Positions 1-23,220 of a stretch of 39,053 bases of DNA are shown in pieces. The translations under genes and the position numbers were made by a program. The stretch is from an uncultured Bryobacterales bacterium (GTDB lineage: Bacteria > Acidobacteriota > Terriglobia > Bryobacterales > UBA6623). Each line of letters begins with the position of its first letter. Positions within the stretch are counted from its first letter, which is position 1. The stretch lies in NCBI GenBank assembly GCA_964405625.1, contig CAYOPA010000003.1:1-39053 (forward strand). Direction: 5' to 3'. A model generated the notes under the pieces. The model searched no databases, was not told the origin of the DNA, and saw nothing but the letters and a program-made list of their open reading frames with translations.

Positions 1-907
1 AGGGCGTTACGATCAGCGTCGCCTCGCCCAGCTTGCGGGCCAGATCGGCCGCGGCCAGACCGACCGCTTCGTGTTGGCCGCAGTTGTCCGGCGCCAGGAT
101 CAGCCGGTTGCGCTCCACGCCGGGCGCGACGGCCCTGGCTTTGGTCAGGTCATGGACCGCCTCCAGCACAGCCTCGGAGACGCCGTGCGAGCCCTTGGCT
201 GCGATGCGCTCGCGCCATTCGGTTACAAAGCGATCCGGTTGCGGCTGGCGCCGGCCGGCGGCGGAAGCTTGACGCGAGAACAGCTCCGTGAGCCCGATCC
301 CGCCGCGGCGCATCGACTCGGGCCAGTCCGGGCGAGTCGCCGCCTCGGCTGATGCGGCCGGCGCGGCCTCGGCGACGGCGGCGGTCCGGCGCGGACGGCT
401 CCAACCTACCCGCAGCAAGGTCAGCGAAAGCAGGGCGGCCGTTGACCAATGCGCCGCCGGGTATGACGAAGCAGTGTCTCCCAAGCGCGACCAAGCGGCC
501 GCCAACAGGACCAACAACGGCAGCGAGCAGAGCATGACCCAGCGCCGGTTGTCGGTTTCGTAGCCGATCGATCCCGCCAACCAACGCCCGCGATCGGCCG
601 CGGTCTTCGTCGCTAGGCCGATCATCAACAGGCCCCCCCATGCCAGCAAGGGAAGAAACAGCCACACCTCCTGGCGGTCCATCCACGGAATCCGCGGCGC
701 CACCCCGGGATAGCCCGCCGCGAAGGCGTAGAGGAGCAGCAGCGGGACGCCGATCGCAGCGACGGTCCAGGCGGCGACGCGGCTCCAGTAGGTCCCCGTG
801 TCGCCCAGCTCGGCGCGGCCGCGGGCGCCCAGGTCCGCCAGCAAGGTCAGCAAGAAGCCGACCAGCAGAACCACAAGCGGCAACAAGCCGTTGAGCTCGA
901 AGCTCAT
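1..907 (-). CDS. Partial CDS (runs off the left edge): N-terminal multi-TM region followed by a degenerate SF2/DEAD-box-helicase-like P-loop region
   Basis: Translated by hand; not in the ORF track. ATG at 907 overlaps the upstream TGA (ATGA) and follows GAGGGGAGGAG (SD). Open for 302 codons to the edge: MSFELNGLLPLVVLLVGFLLTLLADLG... with about 4-5 hydrophobic segments, ending NRLILAPDNCGQHEAVGLAAADLARKLGEATLIVTP. Confidence 0.8.
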   Translation of the reverse strand, partial: MSFELNGLLPLVVLLVGFLLTLLADLGARGRAELGDTGTYWSRVAAWTVAAIGVPLLLLYAFAAGYPGVAPRIPWMDRQEVWLFLPLLAWGGLLMIGLATKTAADRGRWLAGSIGYETDNRRWVMLCSLPLLVLLAAAWSRLGDTASSYPAAHWSTAALLSLTLLRVGWSRPRRTAAVAEAAPAASAEAATRPDWPESMRRGGIGLTELFSRQASAAGRRQPQPDRFVTEWRERIAAKGSHGVSEAVLEAVHDLTKARAVAPGVERNRLILAPDNCGQHEAVGLAAADLARKLGEATLIVTP

Positions 908-3306
908 CGCTCCTCCCCTCGCTTGAGCAGCTCGGTCGGCACGCCAAGCTGCATCTCCAGGAAGTAGGCCCGCTCCCCGCTCTCTCCGCCCGCGGGCCGC
1001 TGGTAGCCGGCTTCGCTCAGGTCATTGGCCACGCCCTCCAGGTTCAGCCACGTCATGGGGAATATGCTCGATCGCGTGACGGCCGACTCTGTTGGCGCCT
1101 GCAACAGAAAGAACGCCAGCGGCGGCTTGGAACAGAGCTTGATGGCCGCGCCCAGCGCGTCGGCGCGCTCGCGCTCGCTCACTGAAGGGCCTTCGCCCGA
1201 GCCGGTCTGAATCGGGTCGCGATAGTCGGCGCTGAGCTTGTCCAAGAAGACCAACGGGCGCAGAAACTCCTCGCAGTATCGCTCCGACCAGCTTCCAAAG
1301 AGATCCAGCTTGGTCTGCCGCTCGCCGAAGTGGGTCGGCTCGGCGGTGCGCTGGCTGAAGACGGCCGCGAGATCCTCGTTGCGCTCCAGTTGGCGCAGCG
1401 CGGAGTGTCCGCGGCGGCGGCCGTCGAACTGGGGGCGCGGTCGGCTCGAGTCCACGCCGTTCATGTCGAGAAAGCTGCCGAGCTGGTCGATCAGCCAGTC
1501 GATCTCGCGGGCACGGCGGCTGAGCAGATCTTTCACGCGCAGCAGCTCGCCGAGCACGTCGCCCAGCACCCGCATCCGCAGCGAGGCCGCGACGCTTTCG
1601 GCATGGGCTCGGAGCTCTTGCTGAACGGCCGCCGAGCGAGTGGCCGTCCGAACGCAGTCCGTCAAGCGCCCCCGCTGGGCGTGGCGGGAAAAGTCGTCGG
1701 CTCGGCGCGAGCGCTTCTCGATCGAGCGCTGGAATACCTGCCGCCCGAGCTGCCAGCCCAGCAGCCAGAAGGCGGCCAGCATGGCGATCGGCGTCAACCG
1801 CTGCGCCCAGCCCTCCAGCTCCACGAATTCGCTCAGCGCGTCCGTCGCGAACGGCGCGGCGGCCAGTGCGAAGACGACGCCAAGCAGCGGCCACCAAACA
1901 TCGGCGAGCCGTTCCGTGCGCACGCGCCCTGCTTGGAACGTTTGGTATTGTTGATGCCGCTCGATGACGGCTTCAAACGGGTCGGCCTCTTCACCGGAGA
2001 CCGCCGAGTTGTCCGGGGGAGGCTCGTAGCGCAGCCGCGGCTCGAAGCGCTCGATCTGGTCGAGCAACTGACCGATGGTCAGCGGATCGCGGACAGCGTC
2101 GAGCTCGCGCAGCACCGCGCCCTCAAGCCGTTCGCGCAGGCCGGCCAGGCGCTGCTCGGCGATGACGCGGGATTCCCGTCCGGCTTCCTGCGAAATCTGG
2201 TCCTTGAGCGCCCAAACCGACCGCCGCCAGCCTTCGGCGACCTGCCGGGGCCAGTCGGGCGCGGCGGGGTCCAGCTTCAGGAGCTTGGTCTCGATCTCGT
2301 CGATCCCCTTTTCGCGCAAGGCGTCGATGCTGTCCAAACCGAGTGTCTGCTCGAGCTGCTCAGGCAGGTAGTCGTGGAGAATCTCGGCCAGCGGCTCGCG
2401 CCGGGCGGTCTCGCCCCGCTTGATGAGGTAGTCCAGAAAGAGCCGCGAATACGTGGCGGCGCTGAGGCGCGCGATCAGCCCGAAGCTGAGCTGGATGCCG
2501 CGAATGCCGACCAGGGCCGCCGCCGGCGCGCCGTCGTCGTCGCGCTGGTAGAGCCGCTCATTATCCCCTTGCCGCTGGCCTTCAAAGAGCAGGAACTCCA
2601 GGAATAGTGCGGTTTCGTCGATACGGGCGTCGCGGTCGCGATGGCCGCCGCGAGTCTCGCTGTCAAACAGGTAGACGCGGCCGAAGTTGGGTTGGCGGCG
2701 CTCGGCGGCCTGCTGGTTGCGTTCGAAGGCGTGCGCCACGGCGTCGCGGATGCGGTTGTGCTCCGCCGAAGTGCGCCAGTAGTCGTCAAAATCGAGGATC
2801 TGGAGAAAGTTGAGCTGGTCGGCGCCTTGTTTGACGCGCGTGAGGGCGAGCCCCTGCGAGAGCTCGCGCAGCATCGGCTCGACCACTTCTTGCAGCTTGC
2901 CGACAGCCTCGGCCCGGCTGGGGTGTGCCAGCACAATCACGTCCAGACCCTGGCTGCGGTCGGCGGCGCCGTGCGCGTCGGCGGCGTGCAGGCGGCGTTT
3001 CGCTTCGCCGGCGGCCCGCGCCAAGCTTTCGCCCACGCCGTAAGGGCCGGGCTCGACCTCCTCGATCTGACGAAACAGATCGACCATCACCTCCGGCGTA
3101 CGCTCCTTGCCGCTGCGGGGGTCGAGCGGGTCGGCGGCCCACAGCAATGCCAGCCCGCGCAGTCGGCGGCGTTGCAGGGAAGCCGGATCGTCGCGTTCTT
3201 CCCACTCCAGCGAGCCGCGCGCGGCGGCGCTGCGCAGCAACCGCTCGAGCACGGTGCGGCCATAGTCCCCGTAGCCGACGAGGATGGTGGGATGCAGGCG
3301 CTTCAT
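904..3306 (-). CDS. Divergent, probably GTPase-inactive tubulin/FtsZ-like protein with an internal TM hairpin (800 aa)
   Basis: N-terminal ILVGYGDYGRTVLERL matches the tubulin-like GxGxxG loop. Segments are collinear with the adjacent tubulin-like gene, but the GGTGSG signature is replaced by LAHPSRAEAVG. Two hydrophobic helices: WWPLLGVVFALAAAPFA and LTPIAMLAAFWLLGWQLG. Confidence 0.7.
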   Translation of the reverse strand: MKRLHPTILVGYGDYGRTVLERLLRSAAARGSLEWEERDDPASLQRRRLRGLALLWAADPLDPRSGKERTPEVMVDLFRQIEEVEPGPYGVGESLARAAGEAKRRLHAADAHGAADRSQGLDVIVLAHPSRAEAVGKLQEVVEPMLRELSQGLALTRVKQGADQLNFLQILDFDDYWRTSAEHNRIRDAVAHAFERNQQAAERRQPNFGRVYLFDSETRGGHRDRDARIDETALFLEFLLFEGQRQGDNERLYQRDDDGAPAAALVGIRGIQLSFGLIARLSAATYSRLFLDYLIKRGETARREPLAEILHDYLPEQLEQTLGLDSIDALREKGIDEIETKLLKLDPAAPDWPRQVAEGWRRSVWALKDQISQEAGRESRVIAEQRLAGLRERLEGAVLRELDAVRDPLTIGQLLDQIERFEPRLRYEPPPDNSAVSGEEADPFEAVIERHQQYQTFQAGRVRTERLADVWWPLLGVVFALAAAPFATDALSEFVELEGWAQRLTPIAMLAAFWLLGWQLGRQVFQRSIEKRSRRADDFSRHAQRGRLTDCVRTATRSAAVQQELRAHAESVAASLRMRVLGDVLGELLRVKDLLSRRAREIDWLIDQLGSFLDMNGVDSSRPRPQFDGRRRGHSALRQLERNEDLAAVFSQRTAEPTHFGERQTKLDLFGSWSERYCEEFLRPLVFLDKLSADYRDPIQTGSGEGPSVSERERADALGAAIKLCSKPPLAFFLLQAPTESAVTRSSIFPMTWLNLEGVANDLSEAGYQRPAGGESGERAYFLEMQLGVPTELLKRGEER

Positions 3307-3325
3307 CGCCGTCGGCCTCGCGGCG

Positions 3326-6300
3326 TTACCCGGCCGCGTCCTTGTCCGGCGGCGGGTCGAAGCTCAATTCGCTCTCGCGCAACAGCGATCCGGATGCAGC
3401 GGAGCCTTGCGTCAGCGGCCGTCCGCTCTTGGCGTCGAGCAGGTCGTCCACAATCGACTGAATCACCCGCAGCACCGGCTGATCGAGCTCCTCCTGGCGC
3501 GAGTTCTCGCCGCGGCGGGCGGCCATGGCGATATCTTCGATCAACTTGCCCGCCCAGGAGCGCAGGGTCTCGGCGCGGCGGCGGAGCTCGTCGGGTCCGT
3601 AGGACTCCTTGGCGGAGTCGACCATTGTTTTGAAACGCGGCCCCAGGTCCTGGTCCAGGTGGTACTCGCCCAGCGTGTAGAGCGCCGCGGCCAGGTTCTC
3701 GCCCAGCGGCTCGCTGTCCTCGGCGTTGCGGCGCCAGAACAGTCCCTCGCGCGTCTTGACGATTACTTGCGTCAACAGGCCATCGACCAACCGGTCCAAC
3801 GCCCACGAGGCGCTCAGCTCGCCCTTGCGCGGGTTGAGGTTCGGCAGCGCCTTCTCCCAGTGGTAGTCGGTGTGCAGATGGTACGCGCGGCGCTCGTTGG
3901 CGGCCACCCGCTCGTAGGCGTTCTCAATGTCGCCCACCACGGCGGCGAAGTAGTACAGCGGGATCGGCAGCTCCATGTCGTGCACGATCGCCAGGTGCGG
4001 GCTTGACCAGCCCGAGTGCTGCGGCTCGCGCCCGCCGCGCTCCAGAATGCGGCGCAAACGGGAGTCGAAGTCCGGCGACACGGAGTCCTTCTTGATGACG
4101 TAGTGCCGCGTCTGCGCCACCTTCACGCCGTCGTCGAGCGTGTCGAGCTCTTCCGAACGCAGCCGCGCCGTCACCCCCGCGAGCTGCGAGAAGGCGACCA
4201 GCTTGCGGTCTACATAGTGGTCGATCTCCGCCTTGCTCGGGGGCTCGCCGGCGCGGCCGGGGGTCAGCAGGCGCGCTTCCAGCTCCAGGCCGGTCTCGAT
4301 ATTGAGCGCCTTGACGTCGTCGTCGCCGTAGATGGTGCGCCGCAGCCGGTCGCGGCCCAGCTTGAGCAGGGCTTGGCGCAGGTCGGTGACGGCCTGGCGC
4401 TCGGATTTCTCGACAAAGCGGCCGCTGCCGGGGTCGCGGACGGGCTTGAGCTCGGCGGCAATGGATTGCGAGAGCACGTTGCGGTCATACGTGGTCATGT
4501 CGCGCCCGCCGTCCACGAACAGCGCGCGGTAGACCTCGGGCCAGATGCGGCGCCGGGGCTTGTCGAGCGTCTCAAAGACCTCCACAGTTAGCGCCATGCG
4601 GGCGATGATCGGATTCGCGCCGCGCCGCAGGGACTCGGCCTCGGTCTCCATGTCCTGCACGAGGTCGTTCATGCGGGTGGCCAGCCGGGCGTAGAGGTGG
4701 CCGCGCTTCTGCATGTAGTCGAGCAGCTCGCGGTACTGCGACTGCTCCAGCTTGGCGTCGAAGTAGCGCTTTTGGGCTTGGGCTACCGTCTGGAAGTTCC
4801 GCTGCGCCTCGTCGCGAGTGCGCATGAAGGTTTCTTCGTCGTGCCGGAACCCCCACTTCTTGGCTTCGGCGGCCTGTTGCAGGTTTTCCAGGAACTCGCG
4901 CTCCAACCGCTCCTTGACCTTGGGGTTTTCGAGGCTGCCTTTCTCGGCTTTCTCGAAACGCTCCTTGATCTCCGGCATGATCTCGCGCTCGCACAGGTCC
5001 AGCAGGCGCAACACCAGATAGCGCTCTTGCATCGGGTCGAGCTTGAGGTCGCGAATCACATCGCCTTCGGCGGCTGAGTTGCGGACCTGCTCCAGGCCCT
5101 CGTCGACGACGACGGCGCCCTTGCGGATGTCCTCCACCAGCCCGTTGACCTGCTGGAGGTACTGGTTGACGCCCTCGCGGTGGAAGACGAACACGCGCTG
5201 CTTGATCGAAACCCTGTTCAGGATCGGCTCGCGCTGCTTGGCCAGCTCGGCGCGGACCTTTTGCACCAGCGTCTCGGCGCGGCGGGCCTCGCCGTTTTCG
5301 TCCACGCCGCCGGTTTTGCGGCCCAGGTCCACGTCCTCCACCAGCCGCTGCCAGTAGCCGTTGGTGATCTCGTCGCGCTCGTCCTGCTGCGCCATCGCCT
5401 GGACGGAGAGCACGAAGGCCTTGTTGATCTCGCGGTAGCGGTCCTCCTCCGCCATGTTGCGGAATTTTGGGTCTTCGTAGTTGACCTGCAAGCGCTCCAG
5501 GGCGCGGGCGCGGTCATCGGCGGCGTCCGGGCTGACACCGAAGGTGATCTGCCGACGCAGGGCTTCCGCCGCGAAGCGCAGCGCTGAGTACTCGTGCAAA
5601 TCCTCGGCCGGCAGCACCAGCGTCGCCAGCCCGAACGCGCCGAAGTTCTTGGCATAGCCGCGGCCGACATTCTTGAGGTCGCCGGGAAAACGGGTCAGTT
5701 CGGTGAGGTGCTTTTCGTAGTTGTCCGCCTCGCTGAGGATGCGCCCGATGATGGGCGTAAAGGCTTGCCAGAAGGTCGCGTCGGCCGCTACCGCCACGAT
5801 ATCGCCGACGGCCATTTGCGGCGGCAGATCGTAGATCGACGAGTAGTAAAACGGGGCGGTCTTCACGCGCGGCGGCTCGGCGCTGGACTGGTTGTTCCAG
5901 TAGACGAAGGTTTCGCCGTTGGGCAGATCCTTCTGCACGTCCGGGTACTGGATTTTGGTCAGGTGCTCGAGTTCCTTGAGCGCGGCGTAGGTGTTGGCGT
6001 GGATGTCTTGGTGCAAGTCCGGGGCGACCTTGTTGAGCAGCGTGGTGGAGAGCAGGAAGTTGCCGATCACGCGCGGCCGCCAGTGCAGGCTGCGGATCAC
6101 GTCCTGCAAAAGGTAGGCCGCGCACAGAAAGCAGCCCGAGCCGGTGCCGCCGGCCAGGGTGGCGTACACGTAGACGTAGATGGTGGGCGGGTCGGCGAGG
6201 CGGAACGTGTTGTCGGCCTCCAGCAAGTGGCGCAGCACCTGTGCGAACCGCTCGCGAATCTGCGGGCTGGAGTAGTGAAAGCCCAGCCGCGATTCCACCC

Positions 6301-6652
6301 GAATCTGGCCTGCGCCGAAGCCGCCGCCGGGTCGCGGCCGGTAAGCCTTATCCAGCCACTGCAGGGCCTGCTGGTCGCCGGATTTGCGGTAGTTTTCCAC
6401 CGCTTGATGCTTATCAAAAGCGCCGATGGTGATCTTGTTGCCGCGCGGAACATGTTCCAGCATGTTCTGGTCGTTGATGTCGGTGTCGATGGAAACGAAG
6501 GCGGTCAGGGGCCGCAACGCTTCGTCCCAATGGGGCAACTGCTTGGCCCGCGCGGCCATGCGATCGACGATTCTTGAGCCCGCGCCGCCGAGACCCACGA
6601 ACATGCGCGGCGGCACTTTTCCCTGCAAGCTCAGAATCGATTCATCCGCCAT
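3326..6652 (-). CDS. Tubulin-like domain protein (Tubulin_2 / FtsZl1-type GTPase) with long helical/coiled-coil C-terminal region (1108 aa)
   Basis: FVGLGGAGSRIV, GAGQIRVESRLGF, YATLAGGTGSG (tubulin signature, nt about 6134-6154), ANTYAALKELEH; SD GAGGAG upstream of the ATG. Confidence 0.92.
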   Translation of the reverse strand: MADESILSLQGKVPPRMFVGLGGAGSRIVDRMAARAKQLPHWDEALRPLTAFVSIDTDINDQNMLEHVPRGNKITIGAFDKHQAVENYRKSGDQQALQWLDKAYRPRPGGGFGAGQIRVESRLGFHYSSPQIRERFAQVLRHLLEADNTFRLADPPTIYVYVYATLAGGTGSGCFLCAAYLLQDVIRSLHWRPRVIGNFLLSTTLLNKVAPDLHQDIHANTYAALKELEHLTKIQYPDVQKDLPNGETFVYWNNQSSAEPPRVKTAPFYYSSIYDLPPQMAVGDIVAVAADATFWQAFTPIIGRILSEADNYEKHLTELTRFPGDLKNVGRGYAKNFGAFGLATLVLPAEDLHEYSALRFAAEALRRQITFGVSPDAADDRARALERLQVNYEDPKFRNMAEEDRYREINKAFVLSVQAMAQQDERDEITNGYWQRLVEDVDLGRKTGGVDENGEARRAETLVQKVRAELAKQREPILNRVSIKQRVFVFHREGVNQYLQQVNGLVEDIRKGAVVVDEGLEQVRNSAAEGDVIRDLKLDPMQERYLVLRLLDLCEREIMPEIKERFEKAEKGSLENPKVKERLEREFLENLQQAAEAKKWGFRHDEETFMRTRDEAQRNFQTVAQAQKRYFDAKLEQSQYRELLDYMQKRGHLYARLATRMNDLVQDMETEAESLRRGANPIIARMALTVEVFETLDKPRRRIWPEVYRALFVDGGRDMTTYDRNVLSQSIAAELKPVRDPGSGRFVEKSERQAVTDLRQALLKLGRDRLRRTIYGDDDVKALNIETGLELEARLLTPGRAGEPPSKAEIDHYVDRKLVAFSQLAGVTARLRSEELDTLDDGVKVAQTRHYVIKKDSVSPDFDSRLRRILERGGREPQHSGWSSPHLAIVHDMELPIPLYYFAAVVGDIENAYERVAANERRAYHLHTDYHWEKALPNLNPRKGELSASWALDRLVDGLLTQVIVKTREGLFWRRNAEDSEPLGENLAAALYTLGEYHLDQDLGPRFKTMVDSAKESYGPDELRRRAETLRSWAGKLIEDIAMAARRGENSRQEELDQPVLRVIQSIVDDLLDAKSGRPLTQGSAASGSLLRESELSFDPPPDKDAAG

Positions 6653-6747
6653 GGCCGTCTCCTCGTCGAAAAGTCGCCGTCAAAATCACCGCAACCGCCC
6701 GCCGTGCATTGCGCCGGGCTGTTGTTGAGGCATCGAACGCACCTATC

Positions 6748-9057: not shown

Positions 9058-9059
9058 TG

Positions 9060-11396: not shown

Positions 11397-13693
11397 TGGT
11401 CAGATTCAGCGCCGGAGGAGAATTCGGTGCGAAAGGTGCGAACCTCGCCGCTGGATGTCTGATAGCGGTAGCCGCGGCGGGCTTCGACGGCGTAGAGGTT
11501 GCCGTCGGGGGTGGGAACGTCACGCCAATCGGCGCCCACTTGCTGCTGCACGGCCCGTGCGCCGGCGGGAGGGCGGAAGGCGTACAAGTCGCCGGCCAGG
11601 GGCCGGAACCAGCCCAGCGGCGACTGGCCGCCCGGCGCCTCCATCGGAAGCTCGGACTCCAGCGCCGCTACCCGGCGGAACAGCGGCGCATCTCCCAGCG
11701 GCAGCGGTGTGAACGGCCCTTGCGGCCCCGGCGCGGACGCTGCGCGGAAGTCCGGCGGCAAGGTCGGGCGGTAGCGGGCGAACCAAGCCAGCGCCGCCAG
11801 CAGCAGCAACAGCAGCAGCAACGTCGCCAGCGACCAGTAGCGCTGCAACAGGTTCGGCTGGGCCACTTCCAGCTTGACCGTGAAGGGGTCGGACAGCGCG
11901 CCCAGCGGCATTTCGCGATAGGGCGTCTCCGCCAGGCTGAAGTGCAGCTCAACGCCGGCCGAGCCGCCTTGGCCGGGCCGTCCGATCTCCACGCAGACCT
12001 GGAAAGGCCGCTCGGAGCCTTCGGCCGAGTCCGAGCGCTTGAGCCGCGCGATCAACGCCGAATCGAGCTCGGCTGTCCACGGATCGCGGCCCGGCTGCGG
12101 CTCTCGCACCGGACGCGACGCCACCGAGGAGCCCTGGATCTGCAATCGCACCGAGGCGCCGCCCAGCGGCCCGCTGCGCAGCTCCGCCTTGGGGTCGAGC
12201 GACGCCGTCAACCGGTAGGGCCTGCCCGTGGAGGCGCGGGCCTCAAAGCGGTCCCAGGGTTCCAGCAAGAGCGCGAAATTGGCGCAGCCCACCTCCGAGC
12301 GGGCTAAATTCCCCCGATCGGCGTCGGCAGTGGCGGGGGTGGAGCGTATGCGCAGCAATGGCTTCACCGTGGCAGCCATCCCTTCCACGCCGCTCAGCGT
12401 CTCCAGCGTCACCTCGCCGCGCATGGCCCGCACCTCCAGGCGGCCCAGGTAGGAGTCAGCGCCCGCCGGAAAGGTCTCCTTGAAGACCGGGCAGACCTGA
12501 AACTCGCGCGCGTCGCCGTCCGAGTTGAGCTCGCCGCCGGAAGCAGGGAACCAGCCGTCGATATAGCTCGGGCCGGAGATCCGGAACGACACCGTGATGT
12601 CCGCCGGCGGAGGCTCCCTGGAGCCGCCCTTCAGCCGTAGCGCCACCGTCTGGCAGAGGTCGCTGCGGGTGGCCAGCGTCTCAAAGCCGCGGGGAGTCGC
12701 CCAGCTCAGCTCAATCTCGGGAGGACGCAGAATGGCGATGGTGGCGTTGGGAGCTGCCGTCCGGATTGGCGTGAGCGCCTCGGGTATCGGGGCCGTCAGC
12801 CAGCGCAGGGCATAGGCGGCGCCCACTTCCGAGGCGACTTGCAGCGGGTTCGGCGTCCCCAGCGGCTCGGTCGGCGACAGCTCAAAGCCGGGCTGAACCG
12901 CGGACTTCCAAAAAGCCACCACAGCGGCGTTTTCCGGAATCACCCGACCTCGCAGCCGCAGTGAGTTGCCACTGACGGTCTCCGAGACATACCCGCAACA
13001 GCGCCCGAAAATCTCGATCATGTTCTCCAACAGGTTCTGGCCCGACGGGTCTTCAAAAACCTCGCCCAGGCTGCGGCCGTCCGGGTTGATGGCCGGGTCC
13101 GAGGGATTCACGACCGGTTGAAAGAAGCCCGAAGCCGCGGCCGCCTGGTCGCCGAAAGCCAGCACCAGCAGGCGCGTGTTCGTCTCCAACATACGCGGCG
13201 CCAGCTTGCGCAGGATCAGGCTCTGGTCCAGGTCGGCGCGATCGCTGAGGCCATCGGTCAGTACCACGACCAAGCGCTCGCCCTCGCGGGCTTCCAAGCG
13301 CTTCGTCGCCACGCAAAGGGAAGGGTAGAAGTAGGTCCAATCGGCGTCGTAGGCCAGCGCTGCGAGCCGCGTCTGCAAGTTCGCCCCGGCGGCCGCTCCC
13401 GACGAGCCGCGCGTGGGCTCGACCACGCCGCCGGAGCGCTCCTCGCAGGGCTCGCTCGAATCGGTCCACTTCTGGCCGCCGGGCTGGAAAGGGATGACCT
13501 CAAAGGTGTCGCCGGAGGCCAAATCCGGGCGCGCCAGGTCAAACAGCATCGCCGTCGAAAGCGTCGCCAGCCGCTTGGGGTCCTGACGCAGCATCGACTT
13601 CGAGGTGTCCAGAATTACGACGATGTGCCGCGCGGCCTGGGCCGTCGACGCCAACAGCAACAAGCCCGTCAACAGCAGCGCATAGCGTCTCAT
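11393..13693 (-). CDS. vWA-domain single-pass membrane protein, copy 2, the most divergent (766 aa)
   Basis: Start reassigned to ATG 13693 (TGATG overlap with the upstream stop), giving the signal peptide MRRYALLLTGLLLLASTAQA. VILDTSKSM and VVVLTDGLSD MIDAS elements; TM YWSLATLLLLLLLLAALAWFA; more divergent tail. Confidence 0.85.
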   Translation of the reverse strand: MRRYALLLTGLLLLASTAQAARHIVVILDTSKSMLRQDPKRLATLSTAMLFDLARPDLASGDTFEVIPFQPGGQKWTDSSEPCEERSGGVVEPTRGSSGAAAGANLQTRLAALAYDADWTYFYPSLCVATKRLEAREGERLVVVLTDGLSDRADLDQSLILRKLAPRMLETNTRLLVLAFGDQAAAASGFFQPVVNPSDPAINPDGRSLGEVFEDPSGQNLLENMIEIFGRCCGYVSETVSGNSLRLRGRVIPENAAVVAFWKSAVQPGFELSPTEPLGTPNPLQVASEVGAAYALRWLTAPIPEALTPIRTAAPNATIAILRPPEIELSWATPRGFETLATRSDLCQTVALRLKGGSREPPPADITVSFRISGPSYIDGWFPASGGELNSDGDAREFQVCPVFKETFPAGADSYLGRLEVRAMRGEVTLETLSGVEGMAATVKPLLRIRSTPATADADRGNLARSEVGCANFALLLEPWDRFEARASTGRPYRLTASLDPKAELRSGPLGGASVRLQIQGSSVASRPVREPQPGRDPWTAELDSALIARLKRSDSAEGSERPFQVCVEIGRPGQGGSAGVELHFSLAETPYREMPLGALSDPFTVKLEVAQPNLLQRYWSLATLLLLLLLLAALAWFARYRPTLPPDFRAASAPGPQGPFTPLPLGDAPLFRRVAALESELPMEAPGGQSPLGWFRPLAGDLYAFRPPAGARAVQQQVGADWRDVPTPDGNLYAVEARRGYRYQTSSGEVRTFRTEFSSGAESDQ

Positions 13694-15855
13694 CAGCCCA
13701 GCCTCGTCGCGGTTTGGAAAAACGGCCCGCGCTCGCCGATGCGGTAGGTCTCGCCGCCGCGAATGCGGGCCCCCGCCTCGGGAACTTCGTCCCAATCGCC
13801 CACGCCGCCGTCGCGATACAACATGCCGCTCGTGCTCTTGACCATCACCGTGCGTGGTCCCACCGCTTCCAGCGCCACCACGGCGCCCTTCTTATTGCCT
13901 GTGACGCGGAAATCCGCTGTCAGGTAGGCTTTGGCGTTGCGGTACCAGCCTTTGCGCGTCCCCTTCCAGCTTCGGATGGATTGCGGCAGGTTGTCCTCGA
14001 TGTCGTCAAGCTCGGGCACATAGACCAGCGCCAGCTCGCGAGGGAAGGAGTGGGGCTTGATGAAGCCGTAGATGATGAACGCCAACACCAGCAACGCCAG
14101 AGCGCCCAGAATCCACCACTTCCACAGCTCCCAGAACGACAGGCCGTTGACCTGCCAGCTCAGCTCCAGCGGGACGCCGGCGCTGGGCGCGTCCACGCCG
14201 CGCATCCGCAGCTCGGTCCAGCGCCGGGCGTCGCCGCTGGAGGACGGCGCGCGTCGCTCGGTCACCAGGCACAGCGTCTTCTCGTCGGTCGGGCCGAGCA
14301 GCAGGGGCTCTCCGCCAGGCCGGGAAACGCCCGCCGCCGCGCGCAGCTCCAGTGCGTGACCGCCGGGAAGCGTCTCCAGCATCTTCAGCTCCAAGGGGAC
14401 GTTGCCCACGTGCTCGGCTTGGAACACCAGCGGGCGACAGGCTTCCTCGCCGGCCTTGAGCGTCCCGAAATCCAGCGAAACCGGCGGGCCGGAGTAGCGG
14501 AACATGCCGCTGACGTCGATTACGCCGCGCGCGGTGCGGTCAACAAAGCTGTTCGACGCGCGCACGATCACCGGCGCGGGGCCGGGCTGGGTCAGGGTGA
14601 TCTTGCCGGTGAAGCGACCGTCGCCGGACTCGCGCAACTCCACCGTGCGGCCCTCGATGGTCGCTTCCATCATGACCTCTTCGCCCAAGTCGGCCGGACG
14701 AATGTCCGCGCCGCCCTCCGAGGCCCGCAAGACCACGGTCATGGTCGTCTCAACGCCGGAGATCACCGAGCGCGGCTCCAGAATGTGCGGCGCCAGATCG
14801 GAGCGCTCAATCACGGCGTAGGAGACGTTCGGCCCGCCGCCGGTGGCGCGGACCTCCCACTGCCCAGGAGCGGGGTCGCTTAGGTAGGCCACTCGGTAGG
14901 CGCCCGCTCGGGTCTGCTGGTCGGCGGCGAAGTCCGCGGCGATCTCGCCTCCGGGGCCCGCCACGCTTGCCGCCGATAGAGTCGCGTCGCCGAAGATCAC
15001 CACCCAGGCCTCGTCGATCTCGGGCTTCATCTCAAAACGCGGGTTTGCGGCCACGCGGCCGTCGGAACGGAACGGCGCCCTTACGATGCGCCGGAACGAA
15101 TCGGCGAAGGCCGACATCAGCTCGGCCGGGCCGCTGGCTTGGCGGCGCGGCAGGCCGGCTTCGGCGGCTTGGTCGGTGCTGCCGCGGCCGAACACGATCG
15201 CCTCGACGCCAACCTCGTCCTGCTGGAGCTTTCGGAGGATCTCCATCGACTGCGGCCAGTCCTCGGCGTCGCCGTCAGAGAGGACGATCAGCGTTCGCGG
15301 AATATCAGGCGCGGAGTGGCGATTCTGATCGAAGATCGCCTTAGCCGTCGCGAAAGAGAACGCGAAAAAGCTCTCGTTCCCGTCGGCTTCGAGGTGGGCG
15401 TCGAGCTCGCTCTTAAATTGCGTCGAGCCCCGCCGGTCGCGAATCTTCTCCCCAACGAGGCGCTTTCCCTCCAGCAGCTCGCGGCCGACCTCCGGCGGCA
15501 GCGAGTAGCCCGAGCAATTCATGCTGGGGTCCTCGCGGCAAGGCTTAAACTCGCCCGATTGGACCATGCCGACGCGCTCTTTGTCCCTGGTGGCGGACAT
15601 CAGGCGTAGGATGGCGAGCTTGCCGGGCACTATGTCGGAGAACAGCTTGGAGACAAGCACCGAGGTGCGCTCGGGGTCCATGCCTGGATTGAGCATGCTC
15701 CGGGAGGTGTCAACGACAACGGCGACGTCGGTCGGAAACGAGTCTTGGGCCGAAAGCGACGCGCCGAAGCAGGCCAGCCAGGCCAGCGCGAGCGCCGTCG
15801 TCGGGCCGTGAACGGCGGCTCGATGTCTTCGTAAAGAAAAAGCCCGAAAAGGCAT
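13693..15855 (-). CDS. vWA-domain single-pass membrane protein, copy 1, first gene of the cluster (720 aa)
   Basis: Signal peptide (..GASLSA|QD); VVVDTSRSM and LIVLSDGD MIDAS elements; DPAPGQW; TM WWILGALALLVLAFIIYGFI; conserved tail (GWYRNAKAYLTADFRVTG). Confidence 0.88.
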   Translation of the reverse strand: MPFRAFSLRRHRAAVHGPTTALALAWLACFGASLSAQDSFPTDVAVVVDTSRSMLNPGMDPERTSVLVSKLFSDIVPGKLAILRLMSATRDKERVGMVQSGEFKPCREDPSMNCSGYSLPPEVGRELLEGKRLVGEKIRDRRGSTQFKSELDAHLEADGNESFFAFSFATAKAIFDQNRHSAPDIPRTLIVLSDGDAEDWPQSMEILRKLQQDEVGVEAIVFGRGSTDQAAEAGLPRRQASGPAELMSAFADSFRRIVRAPFRSDGRVAANPRFEMKPEIDEAWVVIFGDATLSAASVAGPGGEIAADFAADQQTRAGAYRVAYLSDPAPGQWEVRATGGGPNVSYAVIERSDLAPHILEPRSVISGVETTMTVVLRASEGGADIRPADLGEEVMMEATIEGRTVELRESGDGRFTGKITLTQPGPAPVIVRASNSFVDRTARGVIDVSGMFRYSGPPVSLDFGTLKAGEEACRPLVFQAEHVGNVPLELKMLETLPGGHALELRAAAGVSRPGGEPLLLGPTDEKTLCLVTERRAPSSSGDARRWTELRMRGVDAPSAGVPLELSWQVNGLSFWELWKWWILGALALLVLAFIIYGFIKPHSFPRELALVYVPELDDIEDNLPQSIRSWKGTRKGWYRNAKAYLTADFRVTGNKKGAVVALEAVGPRTVMVKSTSGMLYRDGGVGDWDEVPEAGARIRGGETYRIGERGPFFQTATRLG

Positions 15856-15945
15856 GGCCCCGACCCCTAAGATAGTAGCCTAAGCGACCGCCGCGCGGGA
15901 CGGGCTCCGGCCCGCGTGCGTCGGTGCGGTTCAGACCATAGCGCC
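15856..15945. promoter_or_regulatory. Divergent promoter region between the vWA/tubulin cluster and the pseudokinase gene
   Basis: 90-bp gap between head-to-head genes. An AT-rich patch CCTAAGATAGTAGCCTAAG (15866-15884) has -10-like hexamers on both strands (TACTAT minus, TAAGAT plus) and a CCTAAG direct repeat. Confidence 0.45.
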
Positions 15946-18549
15946 ATGAGTGAGATGCAATCGTCCGACACTGCTCCGGCTCCGAAAATCAAACGTTGCC
16001 CGAAGTGCATGCAACCGGCGCAGCCCGGCGCGAAGTTTTGCGACTCGTGCGGCTCCGCCCATGATGCGCGGCCGGACGCCCCCGGCGACCCGCCGGTCGG
16101 TTCGGTCATCGGCGAGCGCTACGAGATGGGGCTGGCGCTCGGCGCGACGCCCTACGGCCGGGCCTACATCGCCTGGGACGAGGCCGCCTCGGAACCGCGC
16201 GTCCTGGTCGCTTCCCATGGCCCGCAGCAGTTCGCCTCGGAGCTGGCCGAACCCGCCGCCGCCGAGCAGACCGCCCGCTACTTCGCCGGCCGCAGCATCA
16301 CCACGACGCCCAAGGTCGAGGGCGCGGCCACGGCGATCGAGCTGCTTGTCGCCGGCGACCGCCTCATCAATGTTTTCGACGAGCCGTCGGGCCGGAGCCT
16401 CGTCAACGCCGACACGCTGCTGGACGCGCTGGAGTCCCGCAACGCCGTCCCGAAGGCCGAGGAGACCCGCGGAATCTTCGCACCGATCGCGCACGCCTTG
16501 CAGGGCGTCCACGCTACCGGCCGGACGCATGGCCGCGTCTCGCCGCACACCATCTACATTGGGGCGGGCGCTCCGGCGATGCTGCTGGACGTGCCGGCTA
16601 TTCAGGGCAATGACGACCCGCGCGCGGCCGCGCTGCTGGATGTCCCTTTCGCCGCTCCCGAGCTGCGCTCGGGCCAGCCCGCCACGCCCGCCTCGGACGT
16701 CTACTCGCTGGCCGCCACGATCCTGCGCGTAATGACCGCCCGTCCGCCGGGAACGCGTTCCAAGCACGAGATTGTCAGCGACGTACGGCAGGCCGGCGCC
16801 CCCCAGCCGGCGGGTGAAGTCCTGGCGCAAGCCCTGTCGCAGGGCCCCGGCGACCGCTTCGCCTCGGTGGAAGCCTTTTGGCAGGCCTACATGGCGGCGT
16901 TTGCGAAGAAGCCGGCCGCCGCTTGGCCCAAGCTCGTGGCGATGATCCTGTTGCTGTTGGGCGTGATCGCGGGCGGCGTCTACCTGGGGATAGAATTTGG
17001 GCCGAGCTTGCTGGCGATGCTGCAGGGCGGGCCGAAGATTGTGCTCGAGGGGCCGAAGGACCCGGTTCCCCTCGGTGGCGACGCGACAGTACGCTGGGAG
17101 GCGCCGGCGGATTCTCGAGTGACGATCGACGGGCTGGAAGTTGATCCCTCGGGCTCGACGATCGTCAGCGGCCTGGACGCCGACCGCGAAATCGCGCTCC
17201 AAGTCACGCTGGCCGACGGGTCGGTCGAGACGCGCAAGCTGCAACTGCGGGTCGCCGCTGAGGCGCCGCCGGGCCCTGCCGAAGCTGAAGCTGAAGCTTT
17301 GGAGATTACCTTCACCGCGCCGGACGAGCCCGCGCCGTATGGCGGCGCGGCCCGGCTGAGCTGGATCGTGCGCGGCGCTTCTTCGGTGACGCTCGACGGC
17401 AACCCGGTGGACCCGGCGGGCTCGTTCCTCGTTAGCGGGCTGTTGGCGGACGAGACGCACACCCTGGAGGCGGTGGCGGCGGACGGCTCGCGGCGGACGC
17501 GGCAGGCTTCCATCCGCGTGCAGCCGGGCGCGCCGCCGTCCACGGGCGGCGTGCGGCGCGACCCGGAGGAGAAGCGAATTCCGATCGCTCCGCCTCCACC
17601 GCCAGCCCGGCCCTTGGCGCTCTCGTTTGTGCCTTCCACGCTCAGCGTCCCCTTCGGCGGCGATGTCGAGCTGCGCTGGGAGGCCGTCAACGCCCGCTCG
17701 GTGACGCTCGACGGCAAGACCGCGCCGGTCAAGGGCTCGCAACAAGTCAGGGGCCTCGAAAAGGATCAGACATTCGTGTTGAGCGCCGTCGGCGTGGACG
17801 GCTCCCGCGAGGAGCGGCGGCTGGACATCCGCGTCAGCAAGCCCGGCGCTCCTTCGGTGACGGCTTTTGCCGCCGAGCCTGACAGCGTGCTCCCGGGCGC
17901 GACGACGACGCTGCGCTGGCAGGTTTCCGGCAACTTTACCTCGTTGTCCATCCAGCCCGGCGGCCCGGTCTCCGGCGCAACCGGCACGCGACAGGTTAAG
18001 CCGGCCGCCTCGACCGAATACACTCTGACCGCGACCGGCCCGGGCGGTTCCGTTTCGGCGAAAACGACCGTGCGGGTCCGCCAGCCGCCGCCGACAATTG
18101 TGAGCTTCAGCGCCACTCCGCCGACGGTCTCCTGCCAGGACGCCGCGCAACTGGAATGGAACGTTCGCGACGCCACCGACGTGAGCATCGACCCCGAGCC
18201 CGGCCGCGTGGGCGCTTCGGGCAGCGAACGCGTGCGTCCGGGACGCGATCGCACCTACACGCTCACCGCGCGCGGTCCCGGCGGCGTCACCTATAAGGAA
18301 GCGTCGGTGGCGGTGGCTTATAGCGGGCCGAAGTCCGGCACGATTCACATCAAGCGGCGGTTGCAGAGCGGATTGTCATTTGAGGTTCCGGGTTTTCCCT
18401 GCACTCCGGTGACCGTGTCCGTGACGGGGGATCCCCTCGAAATGGTCCAGCCGCCGACGCAACGCGGCAGCGACTGGGTGGCTTATTTTAAGAGCTCTCG
18501 CGCCGGAAACCGGGAAGTGGAGAGCGTAATCCGCTGGACGGTGCGGTAG
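15946..18549 (+). CDS. Zn-ribbon + Ser/Thr kinase-like (pseudokinase) + TM + five Ig-like repeats; membrane receptor (867 aa)
   Basis: CPKC...FCDSCG; IGERYEMGLALGATPYGRAYIAWD, HGRVSPHTIYI, LLDVP, FAAPE, SDVYSLA (Hanks fold, catalytic residues substituted); TM LVAMILLLLGVIAGGVYLGI; five G-x4-LxW...GS..V repeats. ATG 15946 preferred to GTG 15916. Confidence 0.85.
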   Translation: MSEMQSSDTAPAPKIKRCPKCMQPAQPGAKFCDSCGSAHDARPDAPGDPPVGSVIGERYEMGLALGATPYGRAYIAWDEAASEPRVLVASHGPQQFASELAEPAAAEQTARYFAGRSITTTPKVEGAATAIELLVAGDRLINVFDEPSGRSLVNADTLLDALESRNAVPKAEETRGIFAPIAHALQGVHATGRTHGRVSPHTIYIGAGAPAMLLDVPAIQGNDDPRAAALLDVPFAAPELRSGQPATPASDVYSLAATILRVMTARPPGTRSKHEIVSDVRQAGAPQPAGEVLAQALSQGPGDRFASVEAFWQAYMAAFAKKPAAAWPKLVAMILLLLGVIAGGVYLGIEFGPSLLAMLQGGPKIVLEGPKDPVPLGGDATVRWEAPADSRVTIDGLEVDPSGSTIVSGLDADREIALQVTLADGSVETRKLQLRVAAEAPPGPAEAEAEALEITFTAPDEPAPYGGAARLSWIVRGASSVTLDGNPVDPAGSFLVSGLLADETHTLEAVAADGSRRTRQASIRVQPGAPPSTGGVRRDPEEKRIPIAPPPPPARPLALSFVPSTLSVPFGGDVELRWEAVNARSVTLDGKTAPVKGSQQVRGLEKDQTFVLSAVGVDGSREERRLDIRVSKPGAPSVTAFAAEPDSVLPGATTTLRWQVSGNFTSLSIQPGGPVSGATGTRQVKPAASTEYTLTATGPGGSVSAKTTVRVRQPPPTIVSFSATPPTVSCQDAAQLEWNVRDATDVSIDPEPGRVGASGSERVRPGRDRTYTLTARGPGGVTYKEASVAVAYSGPKSGTIHIKRRLQSGLSFEVPGFPCTPVTVSVTGDPLEMVQPPTQRGSDWVAYFKSSRAGNREVESVIRWTVR

Positions 18550-18559
18550 TATACGCCTG

Positions 18560-19810
18560 ATGCGCGCAGCAATTCTCACGCTGTTCCTTCCGGTCCTGCT
18601 CGTCGGGGCCGAGCTCCCTCTGGTCCAGCCGAACGATGTGGGCCTATCCACCGAGCGGCTGGAGCGGATCACCGCCGCCATGAAGGATGATGTGGAGGCC
18701 GGGCGCCTGCCGGGAGCAATCGGCCTGGTGGCCCGCCGCGGGAGCATCGCCTACTTCGAAACGGTCGGCAAGTCCGACATGGAGCAGCGGCGCGCGATGA
18801 CGCCGGACACGCTCTTCCGCATCTATTCGATGTCCAAGCCCATCACCAGCGTCGCGCTGATGATGCTGCATGAAGAGGGCAAGTTCCGGCTGACCGATCG
18901 CGTGGACCGCTATATCCCCGAGCTGCGCGACCTGCCGGTGGCCGAGGAGAACGTTTTCTACCCCGCCGACCCGGAAAACATCAACCGCCTCATGGCGCGC
19001 CGCCCGATGACCGTGCAAGATCTGATGCGGCACACCTCCGGCATGGCTTACGGCTTCAACGGCGACACGGCTGTGGACCGGCTATACCGAGACCACAAGG
19101 TCGTCGATTGGGACTCGCCGCTAACCACCATGATCGACCGTCTTGCCAAGCTGCCGCTGCTCTATCATCCGGGCGAAAAATGGCACTACAGCATCGCGGT
19201 GGACGTGCAGAGCCGTCTGGTGGAGGTCCTTTCGGGGATGAAGTTCGACCGCTACCTGCGCGAGCGGATTTTCGAGCCGCTGGGGATGGTTGATACGGCG
19301 TTTTACGCGCCCAAGGAGAAGCACGACCGCTTCGCGCAGATTTACGGGCTGGAGGACGGCAAGCTGAGCGTCTCCGAGCCCGACCAGTCCGACCGCTTCA
19401 AAGCGCCGCCGGCCTGGCACTCGGGCGGAGGCGGCCTTGTGTCGAGCGCGATGGATTATTTTCGCTTCTGCCAGATGCTGCTCAACGGCGGCGAGCTCGA
19501 CGGCGAGCGCCTGCTGAGCCGTAAGACAGTCGAGCTGATGACGCGCGACCACTTGGCGCACGCCGACCCGGACCGCGCCCGTACGACGGGGTACGGCTTC
19601 GGGTTGAATTTCGCTGTGCACGTGGACCCGTCGGTGAGCGGTTCGGCGGCGTCAGTCGGCGAGTACAATTGGGGCGGCGCGGCCGGCACCAAGTTTTGGA
19701 TTGACCCGGTCGAGGAGATGATCGGTATTTACATGATCCAGATCCGGCCTGGCGGCGGAGCCTTCGGCCAGACGTTCAAGGAATTGGCGTACCAAGCGAT
19801 CGCCGACTGA
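18560..19810 (+). CDS. Serine hydrolase, beta-lactamase class C / AmpC-like family
   Basis: FRIYSMSKPIT (SxxK), LMRHTSG, PGEKWHYS, GGGGLVS, WGGAAGTKFWIDP; signal peptide. Confidence 0.93.
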   Translation: MRAAILTLFLPVLLVGAELPLVQPNDVGLSTERLERITAAMKDDVEAGRLPGAIGLVARRGSIAYFETVGKSDMEQRRAMTPDTLFRIYSMSKPITSVALMMLHEEGKFRLTDRVDRYIPELRDLPVAEENVFYPADPENINRLMARRPMTVQDLMRHTSGMAYGFNGDTAVDRLYRDHKVVDWDSPLTTMIDRLAKLPLLYHPGEKWHYSIAVDVQSRLVEVLSGMKFDRYLRERIFEPLGMVDTAFYAPKEKHDRFAQIYGLEDGKLSVSEPDQSDRFKAPPAWHSGGGGLVSSAMDYFRFCQMLLNGGELDGERLLSRKTVELMTRDHLAHADPDRARTTGYGFGLNFAVHVDPSVSGSAASVGEYNWGGAAGTKFWIDPVEEMIGIYMIQIRPGGGAFGQTFKELAYQAIAD

Positions 19811-19832
19811 GGTCTATCGGGGCGGGCCGCCC

Positions 19833-19945
19833 GTGGCGCGGGCTTTAATGAAGCCCGCAGCGTCGGCTTTCGAGCCGACCTTCCGAGTAAGTTGCGCGGG
19901 CCTCGAACTGGGGGTCGAGGCGGCAGGCGTGGGCGCCTGCGCCAC
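19833..19945. repeat. REP/REPIN-like palindromic element between convergent genes
   Basis: GTGGCGCGGGCTTTAATGAAGCCCGC hairpin, then GTCGGCTTTCGAGCCGAC hairpin, and at the other end an inverted GTGGCGCAGGCGCCCACGCCTGC (minus strand). Both ends start GTGGCGC. Confidence 0.65.
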
Positions 19946-19954
19946 CATCTCGTC

Positions 19955-21283: not shown

Positions 21284-21290
21284 GGGGACG

Positions 21291-21296
21291 ATTATA
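21291..21296 (-). promoter_or_regulatory. -10 box TATAAT 7 nt upstream of the sulfatase ATG (leaderless-type promoter)
   Basis: Minus strand reads TATAAT-CGTCCCC-ATG; no SD; the hexamer contains the TAA stop of the EamA gene. Confidence 0.6.
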
Positions 21297-22176: not shown

Positions 22177-22191
22177 TCCTCCCAGTGTCGC

Positions 22192-23091: not shown

Positions 23092-23168
23092 GGCCGGCGA
23101 CTCGGATTGTACGCCATTGAGCCCTTGGCTGGAGCTTCCGCCTTTCGTGCGGCTGGTTCCGGGCGACC

Positions 23169-23215: not shown

Positions 23216-23220
23216 ATTCT

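Follow-up and report, generated by a model that had tools for sequence, protein, structure and literature searches.

Seven large minus-strand genes (g1–g7), lying in one row at positions 2–15855 of contig CAYOPA010000003.1 from an uncultured Bryobacterales bacterium (Acidobacteriota; assembly GCA_964405625.1), probably belong (g1–g7 filling window positions 1–15855) to a divergent lineage, not listed before, among the DO-GTPase/GAP1-N2 systems of the tubulin/vWA type, within the broader set of FtsZl1-vWA-GTPase operons. The window analysed here is the whole of that contig (39,053 nucleotides; C3), one of 827 contigs in a 5.8-Mb genome bin (G000). The encoded system is most likely a membrane-associated, GTPase-switched assembly with envelope sensors, its function being predicted. 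The new points are the lineage itself, which extends to two further phyla, a membrane-anchored protein of tubulin fold without GTP motifs, a transmembrane (TM) helicase derivative bearing an MZB domain, and the multiplication of vWA receptors.

The conservation of gene content and order is extensive. A scan for relatives of g2 in 185,579 species, each represented by one genome, gave 30 loci, 14 of which are labelled Acidobacteriota (Thermoanaerobaculia, Holophagales) and 16 Pseudomonadota (Competibacteraceae, Methylococcaceae, Chromatiaceae and unclassified). In complete loci the order is vWA (g7), vWA (g6), vWA (g5), Tubulin_2, g2 and g1, followed by the coiled-coil gene, the DO-GTPase gene and a gene for a GAP1-like protein of ~500 residues. 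Taking for each gene those loci that reach far enough to include it, the Tubulin_2 gene is directly upstream of g2 in 23 of 27 and the TM-MZB gene directly downstream in 25 of 27; the coiled-coil gene is present in 19/27, the DO-GTPase gene in 17/24, the GAP1-like gene in 16/22, a g5-type vWA gene in 17/23 and a g6-type gene in 13/21. The corresponding figure for g7 (10/21) is a lower bound, g7 orthologs being located just outside three loci, and g7 orthologs adjoin the module in all five related genomes that were searched. The extra vWA paralog, g4, occurs in the window and in its nearest relative (L002). Orthologs in the same order elsewhere have 28–87% identity. The locus is a conserved module, not a chance adjacency; an earlier reading of this DNA from its letters and open reading frames (hereafter the sequence-only reading) had made its case depend on the genes being conserved together, and the neighbourhood survey finds the g2, g1, Tubulin_2 and vWA order recurring across the 30 loci.

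The module is at the same time sparsely distributed. In a sample of the phylum, none of 400 other genomes has a g2 match, the genome of the window being the only one of the 401 to have one. In a tree of the g2 family, the proteins labelled Acidobacteriota and Pseudomonadota are interleaved, with at least two label changes forced by supported branches. In Lamprocystis purpurea DSM 4197, a second copy consisting of g2 and g1 only (L029) accompanies one that is nearly complete (L021). An accessory role, for instance in conflict or defence or in some niche-specific function of the envelope, is more likely than a housekeeping one, because of the patchy cross-phylum spread, the interleaved tree, the partial and second copies, and the CHAT-domain neighbours described below.

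Some loci depart from the common arrangement in minor ways. Two overlapping open reading frames take the place of a single Tubulin_2 gene at L012:6676-9968 and L027:6324-9900, owing to a frameshift or an assembly error. In some gammaproteobacterial loci (L005:4863-6613, L017:4756-6606 and L021:4438-6432) extra genes separate Tubulin_2 from the last of the vWA genes, one of those in L005 encoding an NMT1-like binding protein.

The module continues past the left end of the contig, such that the window holds the upstream two-thirds of ~25 kb comprising 10–11 genes. The remainder was located on two other contigs of the same genome. The start of C597 overlaps the reverse complement of the first bases of the window by ~41 nucleotides with one mismatch, and this contig supplies the remainder of g1 together with the opening part of the coiled-coil gene. 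On C598 are the DO-GTPase gene, the product of which is 76% identical to the L002 protein, and the GAP1-like gene. The coiled-coil protein has 770–820 residues in the family, and the product of the last gene ~500. Of 14 family members, 13 have a hit to the DO-GTPase2 profile (PF19993; best E 1.8e-11), the exception being the N-terminally cut copy on C598, and the motifs comprise a P-loop (GPSxxGKT), EDRAG at the Walker-B position and SKAD, i.e. [ST]KxD. Long DO-GTPases (~555–670 residues) have an additional N-domain of ~290 residues, and the GAP1-like protein encoded just downstream has a homologous N-domain (hhalign with its first 290 residues, probability 100%, E 4e-81). In a language-model look-alike search of the Atlas, the clusters nearest to the GAP1-like protein are GAP1-N2/GAP1-M (score 0.93, 200 shared features, 9/10 best matches in one family or clan). 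The long DO-GTPase form is seen at L005:17628-19304 and in L006, L007, L012, L014, L016–L018, L020 and L021, and short forms of ~250–280 residues, which do not have the N-domain, in L002, L003, L009 and the genome of the window. The interruption of g1 at the contig end (window positions 1–60 and C597) appears to reflect a strain variant at which the assembly broke.

Of the two tubulin-related proteins, g3 is, by its sequence, unambiguously a Tubulin_2/FtsZl1 protein with intact GTP-binding motifs. It matches the Pfam profile PF13809 over positions 2–355 of 356 (134.5 bits, cut-off 27; E 6.9e-39) and is the sole match to it in its genome. Both GTP loops, GGxGS and GGTGSG, show no variation among 13 orthologs, the residues concerned being G20, G22, G23, G25 and S26 in the former, and G168, G169, T170, G171, S172 and G173 in the latter.

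The assignment of g2 is of a different kind, as no Pfam, NCBIfam or PADLOC family matches it. The AF2 model of g2 (pLDDT 82.8) matches tubulins, FtsZ, CetZ and BtubA in Foldseek with probability 1.00, and Asgard tubulins are also matched; comparison with tubulin chains using VIA-align gives Z 18.8 and a root-mean-square deviation (rmsd) of 4.3 Å for 300 aligned residues, which range over model residues 4–800 and tubulin residues 1 to ~390. The model suggests that the tubulin domains are split in g2, with residues 4–300 forming one, residues ~620–800 forming the other, and a helical insertion lying in between (residues 300–620). Two hydrophobic segments are present in this insertion in all 20 family members; in the window protein, Arg/Lys residues are on the outer flanks of the pair and acidic residues in the connecting loop, which fits a putative hairpin with both ends cytoplasmic. 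The family alignment (A2) retains a GxGxxG motif at the first loop and has no glycine-rich T4 loop, the position of T4 being taken from the order of secondary structure elements in the model, not from a residue-level superposition. Canonical GTP binding by g2 is unlikely, judging from the alignment, since the strand GLDVIVLA is followed not by a glycine-rich loop but by xPxxxExxG in all 20 members. The active and dead tubulin pair proposed in the sequence-only reading is supported, with g3 having its PF13809 match and GTP loops, and g2 a predicted tubulin fold lacking the GTP signature.

The g2 family is small. A word-indexed protein search found 22 clusters, and a repeat with alignment the same 22 proteins. 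A g2 profile matched 169 cluster representatives in a library of 1.84 billion proteins; the 150 matches listed are proteins of ~800 residues (full-length ones mostly 780–890) or shorter pieces along the profile. A resemblance of g2 to α-pore-forming toxins was considered and rejected, in that AhlB, SmhB and MakA were found by Foldseek with a best E of 5e-4 but with TM-scores of 0.1–0.2 and rmsd >30 Å, and it is kept as a lead only.

The available evidence is that g1 is helicase-derived and membrane-anchored. The piece within the window (302 residues) has four N-terminal hydrophobic helices, from hydropathy, beyond which a soluble domain begins. Its full-length relatives have ~930–1020 residues, and one of these (L002:12394-15321) matches both the window piece and the continuation, G000:C597:5-2038. 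The zinc-binding domain of MrfA (Pfam MZB) is found in 12/12 full-length relatives (best E 5.3e-11), this part of g1 itself being on C597, and the family profile matches the C terminus of YprA (6znp; chain residues 620–734) with E 1.2e-8. The best PDB match for the middle part is again YprA, in the region of motif II and in the same order along the chain, albeit weakly (E 0.059). At the Walker-A position g1 has APDNCGQHE and the family APD[DN]CGQxE; motif II is not conserved, IDELH of YprA lying opposite WWDLE-type residues in that weak match. No DEAD or Helicase_C Pfam domain was detected in 12 family members. It is reasonable to regard g1 as helicase-like and, from these motifs, as probably inactive, in agreement with the degenerate ATPase ascribed to it previously.

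The four vWA membrane proteins, g4–g7, share a common plan, as judged by hydropathy and alignment. A hydrophobic leader opens each protein, DxSxS lies among the first 60 residues, and a long β-rich middle region is followed by a single hydrophobic helix ~120 residues from the C terminus and by related tails. On this plan, each of the module's three to four type-I proteins would expose a MIDAS-bearing vWA domain and four β-sandwich domains outside the membrane and end in a conserved, β-rich cytoplasmic domain of ~115 residues. Because the leader is combined with a single late TM helix, their vWA domains are predicted to be outside the cytoplasmic membrane on single-pass, type-I proteins; the g5 model is consistent with the extracytoplasmic placement of all four domains that the sequence-only reading had noted as unusual. 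The DxSxS motif of the metal-ion-dependent adhesion site (MIDAS) reads DTSIS in g4, DTSGS in g5, DTSKS in g6 and DTSRS in g7. Within the g4/g5 family (alignment A6), D31, S33, S35, T120 and D140 do not vary, which is consistent with a complete MIDAS in this family, T120 and D140 being assigned by position. Among g4–g7, Pfam VWA is detected in g7 alone (24.4 bits, cut-off 23.8; E 3.8e-5), and among the 15 members of A6, VWA_2 is found in 13 (best 5.4e-8) and VWA in six, both at E <= 0.1; the assignment of g6, which has the leader, TM helix and tail, comes from the paralog alignment alone. In g4, which is 43% identical to g5, the β-rich domains are accompanied by a Pro-rich linker, the TM helix is at residues 634–652, and the cytoplasmic tail has ~115 residues; in g7, hydropathy places the TM helix, between leader and tail, at residues 581–599. 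The C-terminal helix of g5 falls slightly under the hydropathy threshold and is assigned from paralog alignment and model.

The AF2 model of g5 (pLDDT 86) provides a more detailed view. Its vWA domain aligns with 4fx5 (Z 17.1, rmsd 2.8 Å, 169 residues), with the vWA domain of ANTXR2 (Z 16.6–16.8) and with integrin I-like domains (Z 12–15), and the ectodomain aligns with that of ANTXR2 at Z 17.5 over 250 residues; the top Foldseek matches are the pilus-tip vWA adhesins PitA and SpaC. The β-sandwich domains resemble Ig-, MG- and FNIII-like arrays, with the type of sandwich mixed among matches. With ANTXR2/CMG2, the integrin I-domains, SpaC and PitA, g5 has in common that Ig-like domains come after a MIDAS-bearing vWA domain (Z 14–17.5), and it resembles ANTXR2 in having a single TM helix and a cytoplasmic tail. 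The cytoplasmic tail of ANTXR2 links to the cytoskeleton. By contrast with those proteins, with which identity is 8–18% and the likeness one of architecture only, g5 has no sortase signal and a tail without detectable relatives, and the earlier comparison with integrins is fair at that architectural level. A profile of 14 g5-type tails found nothing under E 0.5 among PDB sequences. FHA, named in the sequence-only reading among the domains accompanying FtsZl1 genes, was considered for the tail and dropped; no such domain was shown, the FHA cluster that tops the Atlas results scoring 0.80, a noise-level value that one third of shuffled proteins reach. A prediction of the complex of g2 with the TM helix and tail of g5 (residues 630–778) scored 0.00 against a mark of 0.32, which speaks neither for nor against such a complex.

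Two descriptions of predicted systems are close to the locus. In the available text of Makarova and Koonin (PMC2875224), FtsZl1 genes are in operons with genes for vWA proteins, kinases, a diverged P-loop GTPase and many TM proteins, the vWA proteins often being secreted or membrane-bound with MIDAS intact, and membrane remodelling and vesicle biogenesis are proposed as roles. FtsZl1 proteins are described there as having an extended coiled coil and an α-helical C-terminal domain behind the FtsZ-like domain, and the length of g3 (1108 residues) is compatible with this. The locus agrees with the 2010 description in the size of g3 (~1100 residues, like the founding protein Huta_2051 with 1051) and in its linked vWA genes with DxSxS, diverged P-loop GTPase, kinase-like gene and TM proteins. 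It differs in that the available text of PMC2875224 describes no inactive tubulin partner, no helicase-derived component and no GAP1.

Kaur et al. (2020; PMC7159879) define DO-GTPase/GAP1 systems, with a tubulin theme within the GAP1-N2 type. According to the available text, this theme is confined to the Firmicutes and the Actinobacteria; the Firmicutes systems have a pair of tubulin genes and a pair of vWA proteins, of which one has its vWA domain outside the cell, and the actinobacterial ones a single tubulin gene beside an FNIII-vWA protein that is bound to the membrane and has an uncharacterised β-rich domain. A GAP1 of the N2 type, encoded downstream of the DO-GTPase or fused to it, and a protein with rapidly evolving FNIII repeats also mark these systems; the GAP1-like protein and the β-sandwich domains of g5 are candidates for the two. 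As far as this text goes, the common features are a DO-GTPase gene followed by a GAP1-like gene, tubulin genes with long C-terminal extensions, extracellular vWA membrane proteins, β-sandwich repeats, a β-rich domain and several TM components. In addition, g8, the gene beyond g7, recalls a third theme of the same paper in its zinc ribbon, TM helix, β-rich domain and kinase-like region. By contrast, the window lineage is in Acidobacteriota and Gammaproteobacteria, outside the stated range, and, compared with what the text describes, has a second tubulin-fold protein with a hydrophobic hairpin and without GTP motifs, an added 4-TM MrfA/YprA-derived protein and coiled-coil protein of ~800 residues, three to four paralogous vWA proteins rather than two, a dead kinase-like neighbour, and a GAP1-like protein that Pfam GAP1 models do not recognise. 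The main text of PMC7159879 does not contain "Acidobacteria", "DUF1998" or "inactive tubulin", and its seven mentions of helicases are outside the sections on GTPase systems; in the available text of a preprint (10.64898/2026.10.19.760177), DO-GTPases are mentioned only in passing. The sequence-only reading had left room for a match with an already characterised system. In a weak sense there is one, i.e. to the predicted types of PMC2875224 and PMC7159879 as their available text presents them, these being types predicted but not characterised.

The pairing of g3 and g2 also invites comparison with the tubulin heterodimers (α/β, BtubA/B and Asgard AtubA/B), with which it shares neighbouring genes, one working nucleotide site and, for g2, a Z score of ~18. 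It differs in that g2 has lost its GTP signature entirely rather than keeping a bound nucleotide, has a membrane hairpin, and has no detectable sequence similarity to g3.

From these components a mechanism can be proposed in outline. The vWA ectodomains may bind an envelope or foreign ligand, and a signal would then cross the membrane and reach both the cytoplasmic tails and the partners anchored there. The DO-GTPase and GAP1-like proteins could act as a switch, which may control whether the Tubulin_2 protein assembles, in a GTP-dependent manner, on g2, its inactive paralog anchored in the membrane, after which the membrane would be reshaped or breached. With respect to the purpose of such a system, defence or conflict comes first, at somewhat under an even chance; envelope remodelling or a contact response is appreciably less probable, and the remainder is unknown.

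A number of observations weigh against assigning the locus to the DO-GTPase/GAP1-N2 tubulin/vWA systems, or against parts of that assignment. Because there is no significant sequence similarity between g2 and g3, the status of g2 as a dead tubulin, and of the two as a pair, rests on a predicted fold; BLASTP of g2 with g3 gives a best E of 0.028, outside the tubulin domains, and hhalign of the two families a probability of 3% over 33 columns. None of 11 GAP1-like proteins matches a Pfam GAP1 model at E <= 0.1, this last gene of the module giving no Pfam match at all, and the GAP1-N2-like identity rests on the look-alike search and gene position. All 30 loci are Acidobacteriota or Pseudomonadota and lie outside the range of Firmicutes and Actinobacteria given in the available text of PMC7159879, which is a matter of distribution and not a structural criterion. 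The g2 tree is a quick one, with several long branches and with the partial g2 of L030 left out. Seven or eight gammaproteobacterial loci, mostly of Chromatiaceae, hold partial modules, and these may be either sub-modules that stand alone or products of decay. L023, L026, L028 and L029 have g2 and g1 only, L022 and L025 have g3 and g2 only, L027 is partial, and g3+g2+g1 is also seen. Searches of the literature for FtsZl1, PF13809, Tubulin_2 with vWA, and DO-GTPase found no experimental study, in line with the earlier statement that no function has been established experimentally for FtsZl1/Tubulin_2 systems. Finally, the defence reading is weakened in that the module was not found to encode any classical toxic effector domain, and g1–g7 gave no hit to the defence models of PADLOC.

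Other explanations differ in how much of this evidence they accommodate. It is unlikely that the locus encodes a housekeeping or developmental cytoskeleton for membrane remodelling or vesicle formation, with no role in conflict. The proposals in the available text of PMC2875224, the many membrane-anchored parts, the lack of a recognisable toxin or nuclease domain or PADLOC match for g1–g7, and an ordinary flank without mobile-element genes would all suit it, but the very sparse cross-phylum spread, the partial and second copies in Lamprocystis purpurea (L021, L029) and the CHAT neighbours in two of four relatives are features typical of accessory, exchangeable systems. A more far-reaching proposal, which is distinctly unlikely, is that g2 founds a family of integral-membrane proteins in the tubulin superfamily that, with Tubulin_2, would polymerise on the membrane, the hairpins breaching or constricting it once triggered by engagement of the vWA sensors and by the DO-GTPase/GAP1 switch; the hairpin in the ~320-residue insertion is here likened, as an analogy, to the membrane-inserting head of ClyA-type α-pore-forming toxins. 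If correct, the module would be a membrane effector driven by a cytoskeleton, and its outside-in signalling would be an analogue of the coupling of integrins to the cytoskeleton.

It is very unlikely that the window itself holds the whole machine, i.e. a self-contained "bacterial integrin" of four vWA receptors, a tubulin pair, a dead helicase and a pseudokinase, used for contact sensing or envelope remodelling with no GTPase switch. The receptor-like architecture of g4–g7, with the ANTXR2 ectodomain and integrin I-like matches of g5, the tight gene joins, and a g8 ortholog that is divergent beside g7 in the nearest relative are in accord with it; however, complete loci always continue into the coiled-coil, DO-GTPase and GAP1-like genes, as does the genome of the window, no g8 ortholog was found in the other four of five related genomes searched, and no kinase is encoded upstream of g7 in the four regions concerned. 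That the adjacency is fortuitous, or that the large open reading frames are not genes, has a negligible chance: a G+C content of 0.65–0.71 does yield many long spurious open reading frames on both strands, but every gene has orthologs in the same order and the models reach pLDDT 83–86, by which the idea is already refuted.

The assignment to the DO-GTPase/GAP1-N2 tubulin/vWA systems has several consequences. FtsZl1/Tubulin_2 proteins were recognised from sequence in 2010 and DO-GTPase systems in 2020, with no experimental test found in the literature, and a sharply conserved set of 10–11 genes amounts to a compact parts list. It carries the structural hypothesis of an active tubulin-like GTPase beside an inactive, membrane-anchored partner of tubulin fold, and the receptor-like topology of the vWA proteins suggests signalling across the membrane. 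The range of tubulin-containing GTPase systems is widened to two further phyla, and Lamprocystis purpurea DSM 4197 (L021) is a cultured carrier, making the system testable beyond metagenome bins.

The protein encoded by g8, on the opposite strand beyond g7, is a predicted pseudokinase. Pfam Pkinase scores 21.3 bits, under the cut-off of 31.7, and DZR is matched with E 2.5e-4; a TM helix is at residues 341–359, with β-rich repeats that are extracytoplasmic. In alignment with PknE (2h34), HGRVSPHT is opposite HRDVKPEN and DVP opposite DFG, and the lysine of VAIK is absent, the last being read from the sequence without alignment. The loss of catalytic loop residues relative to PknE bears out the earlier view that the kinase is catalytically dead. 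Its inclusion in the system, as proposed at the same time, does not hold. An ortholog (56% identity), divergent beside g7, is found in only one (G401) of the five related genomes searched, the other four giving generic kinase matches or none, and there is no kinase upstream of g7 in these four, two of which instead have CHAT-domain proteins there. Since the ortholog is in one of five genomes and two of the other four upstream regions hold CHAT genes, g8 is a lineage-specific neighbour and not part of the core of the module.

Several further observations concern this region. In G401, a second kinase-like gene adjoins the g8 ortholog. The CHAT genes, in Holophagales and Thermoanaerobaculia (L048:3421-5385 and L049:1154-5563), share the strand of the g7 ortholog and lie immediately upstream of it, and one encodes a TPR-CHAT protein of 1469 residues. 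Residues ~360–877 of g8 (16990–18549) comprise several similar β-rich units of ~90 residues each, relatives of which occur in several other large proteins of G401.

Table 1. Genes g1–g8 and the domains assigned within g2, g3 and g5, with positions in the window
Feature	Position	Strand	Size or residues	Description	Basis
g1	2-907	-	first 302 aa of ~970-aa protein	Truncated at contig end	
g2	904-3306	-	800 aa	Tubulin-fold protein (predicted) without GTP signature ("dead tubulin")	
g2 N-terminal domain	2407-3297	-	~residues 4-300		AF2 model
g2 hydrophobic helix pair in helical insertion	1717-1914	-	~residues 465-530		Hydropathy, family
g2 C-terminal α/β part	907-1449	-	~residues 620-800		AF2 model
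g3	3326-6652	-	1108 aa	FtsZl1/Tubulin_2, GTP-binding motifs intact	
g3 Tubulin_2 domain	5558-6601	-	residues 18-365	Long C-terminal extension after the domain	Pfam
g4	6748-9057	-	769 aa	vWA membrane protein, close paralog of g5	
g5	9060-11396	-	778 aa	vWA membrane protein	
g5 vWA domain	10776-11324	-	residues 25-207	Rossmann-like α/β	AF2 model
g5 four β-sandwich domains		-	residues 214-629		AF2 model
g5 TM helix	9423-9497	-	residues 634-658		AF2 model
g5 cytoplasmic tail	9069-9395	-	residues 668-776	β-rich	AF2 model
g6	11393-13693	-	766 aa from ATG 13693	Most divergent vWA paralog	
g7	13693-15855	-	720 aa	vWA membrane protein, first gene of the row	
g8	15916-18549	+	877 aa	Zinc ribbon, pseudokinase (predicted), TM helix, β-rich repeats	

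The row itself was taken from the list of open reading frames, in which, at a G+C content of 0.65–0.71, long spurious frames are abundant on both strands; the genes named here are those with orthologs in other genomes. The g7/g6 junction, read directly in the sequence, is TGATG with an overlap of one nucleotide, the g6/g5 and g2/g1 junctions are ATGA overlaps, and gaps of 2, 95 and 19 nucleotides separate g5 from g4, g4 from g3 and g3 from g2, respectively; these junctions are as the sequence-only reading described them. The start of g6 is likely best set at ATG 13693, which is codon 35 of an open reading frame opening with TTG at 13795, rather than at that TTG. The head-to-head genes g8 and g7 are separated by 60 nucleotides. 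In positions 1–18600 there are eight terminator-like matches, all within coding sequence and none in the intergenic gaps, as against a chance expectation of 11.2 +/- 3.1, and a scan of the same region found no σ70-like promoter, a result that is uninformative for this phylum. PADLOC and NCBIfam models gave no match with g1–g7, and generic kinase similarities only with g8.

The rest of the window (18560–39053) contains ordinary genes of envelope and polysaccharide metabolism, and no mobile-element genes were seen in this flank. Positions 18560–27018 encode a β-lactamase-fold protein, a sulfatase, an EamA transporter, an amidohydrolase and a heparinase II/III-like protein. Beyond these, positions 27879–38723 look like an exopolysaccharide locus, with genes for a 1053-residue NHL-repeat protein and a 764-residue TPR protein on the plus strand, and, on the minus strand, for a DUF3485 protein, a sugar transferase (Bac_transf) and a 764-residue protein without a Pfam match.

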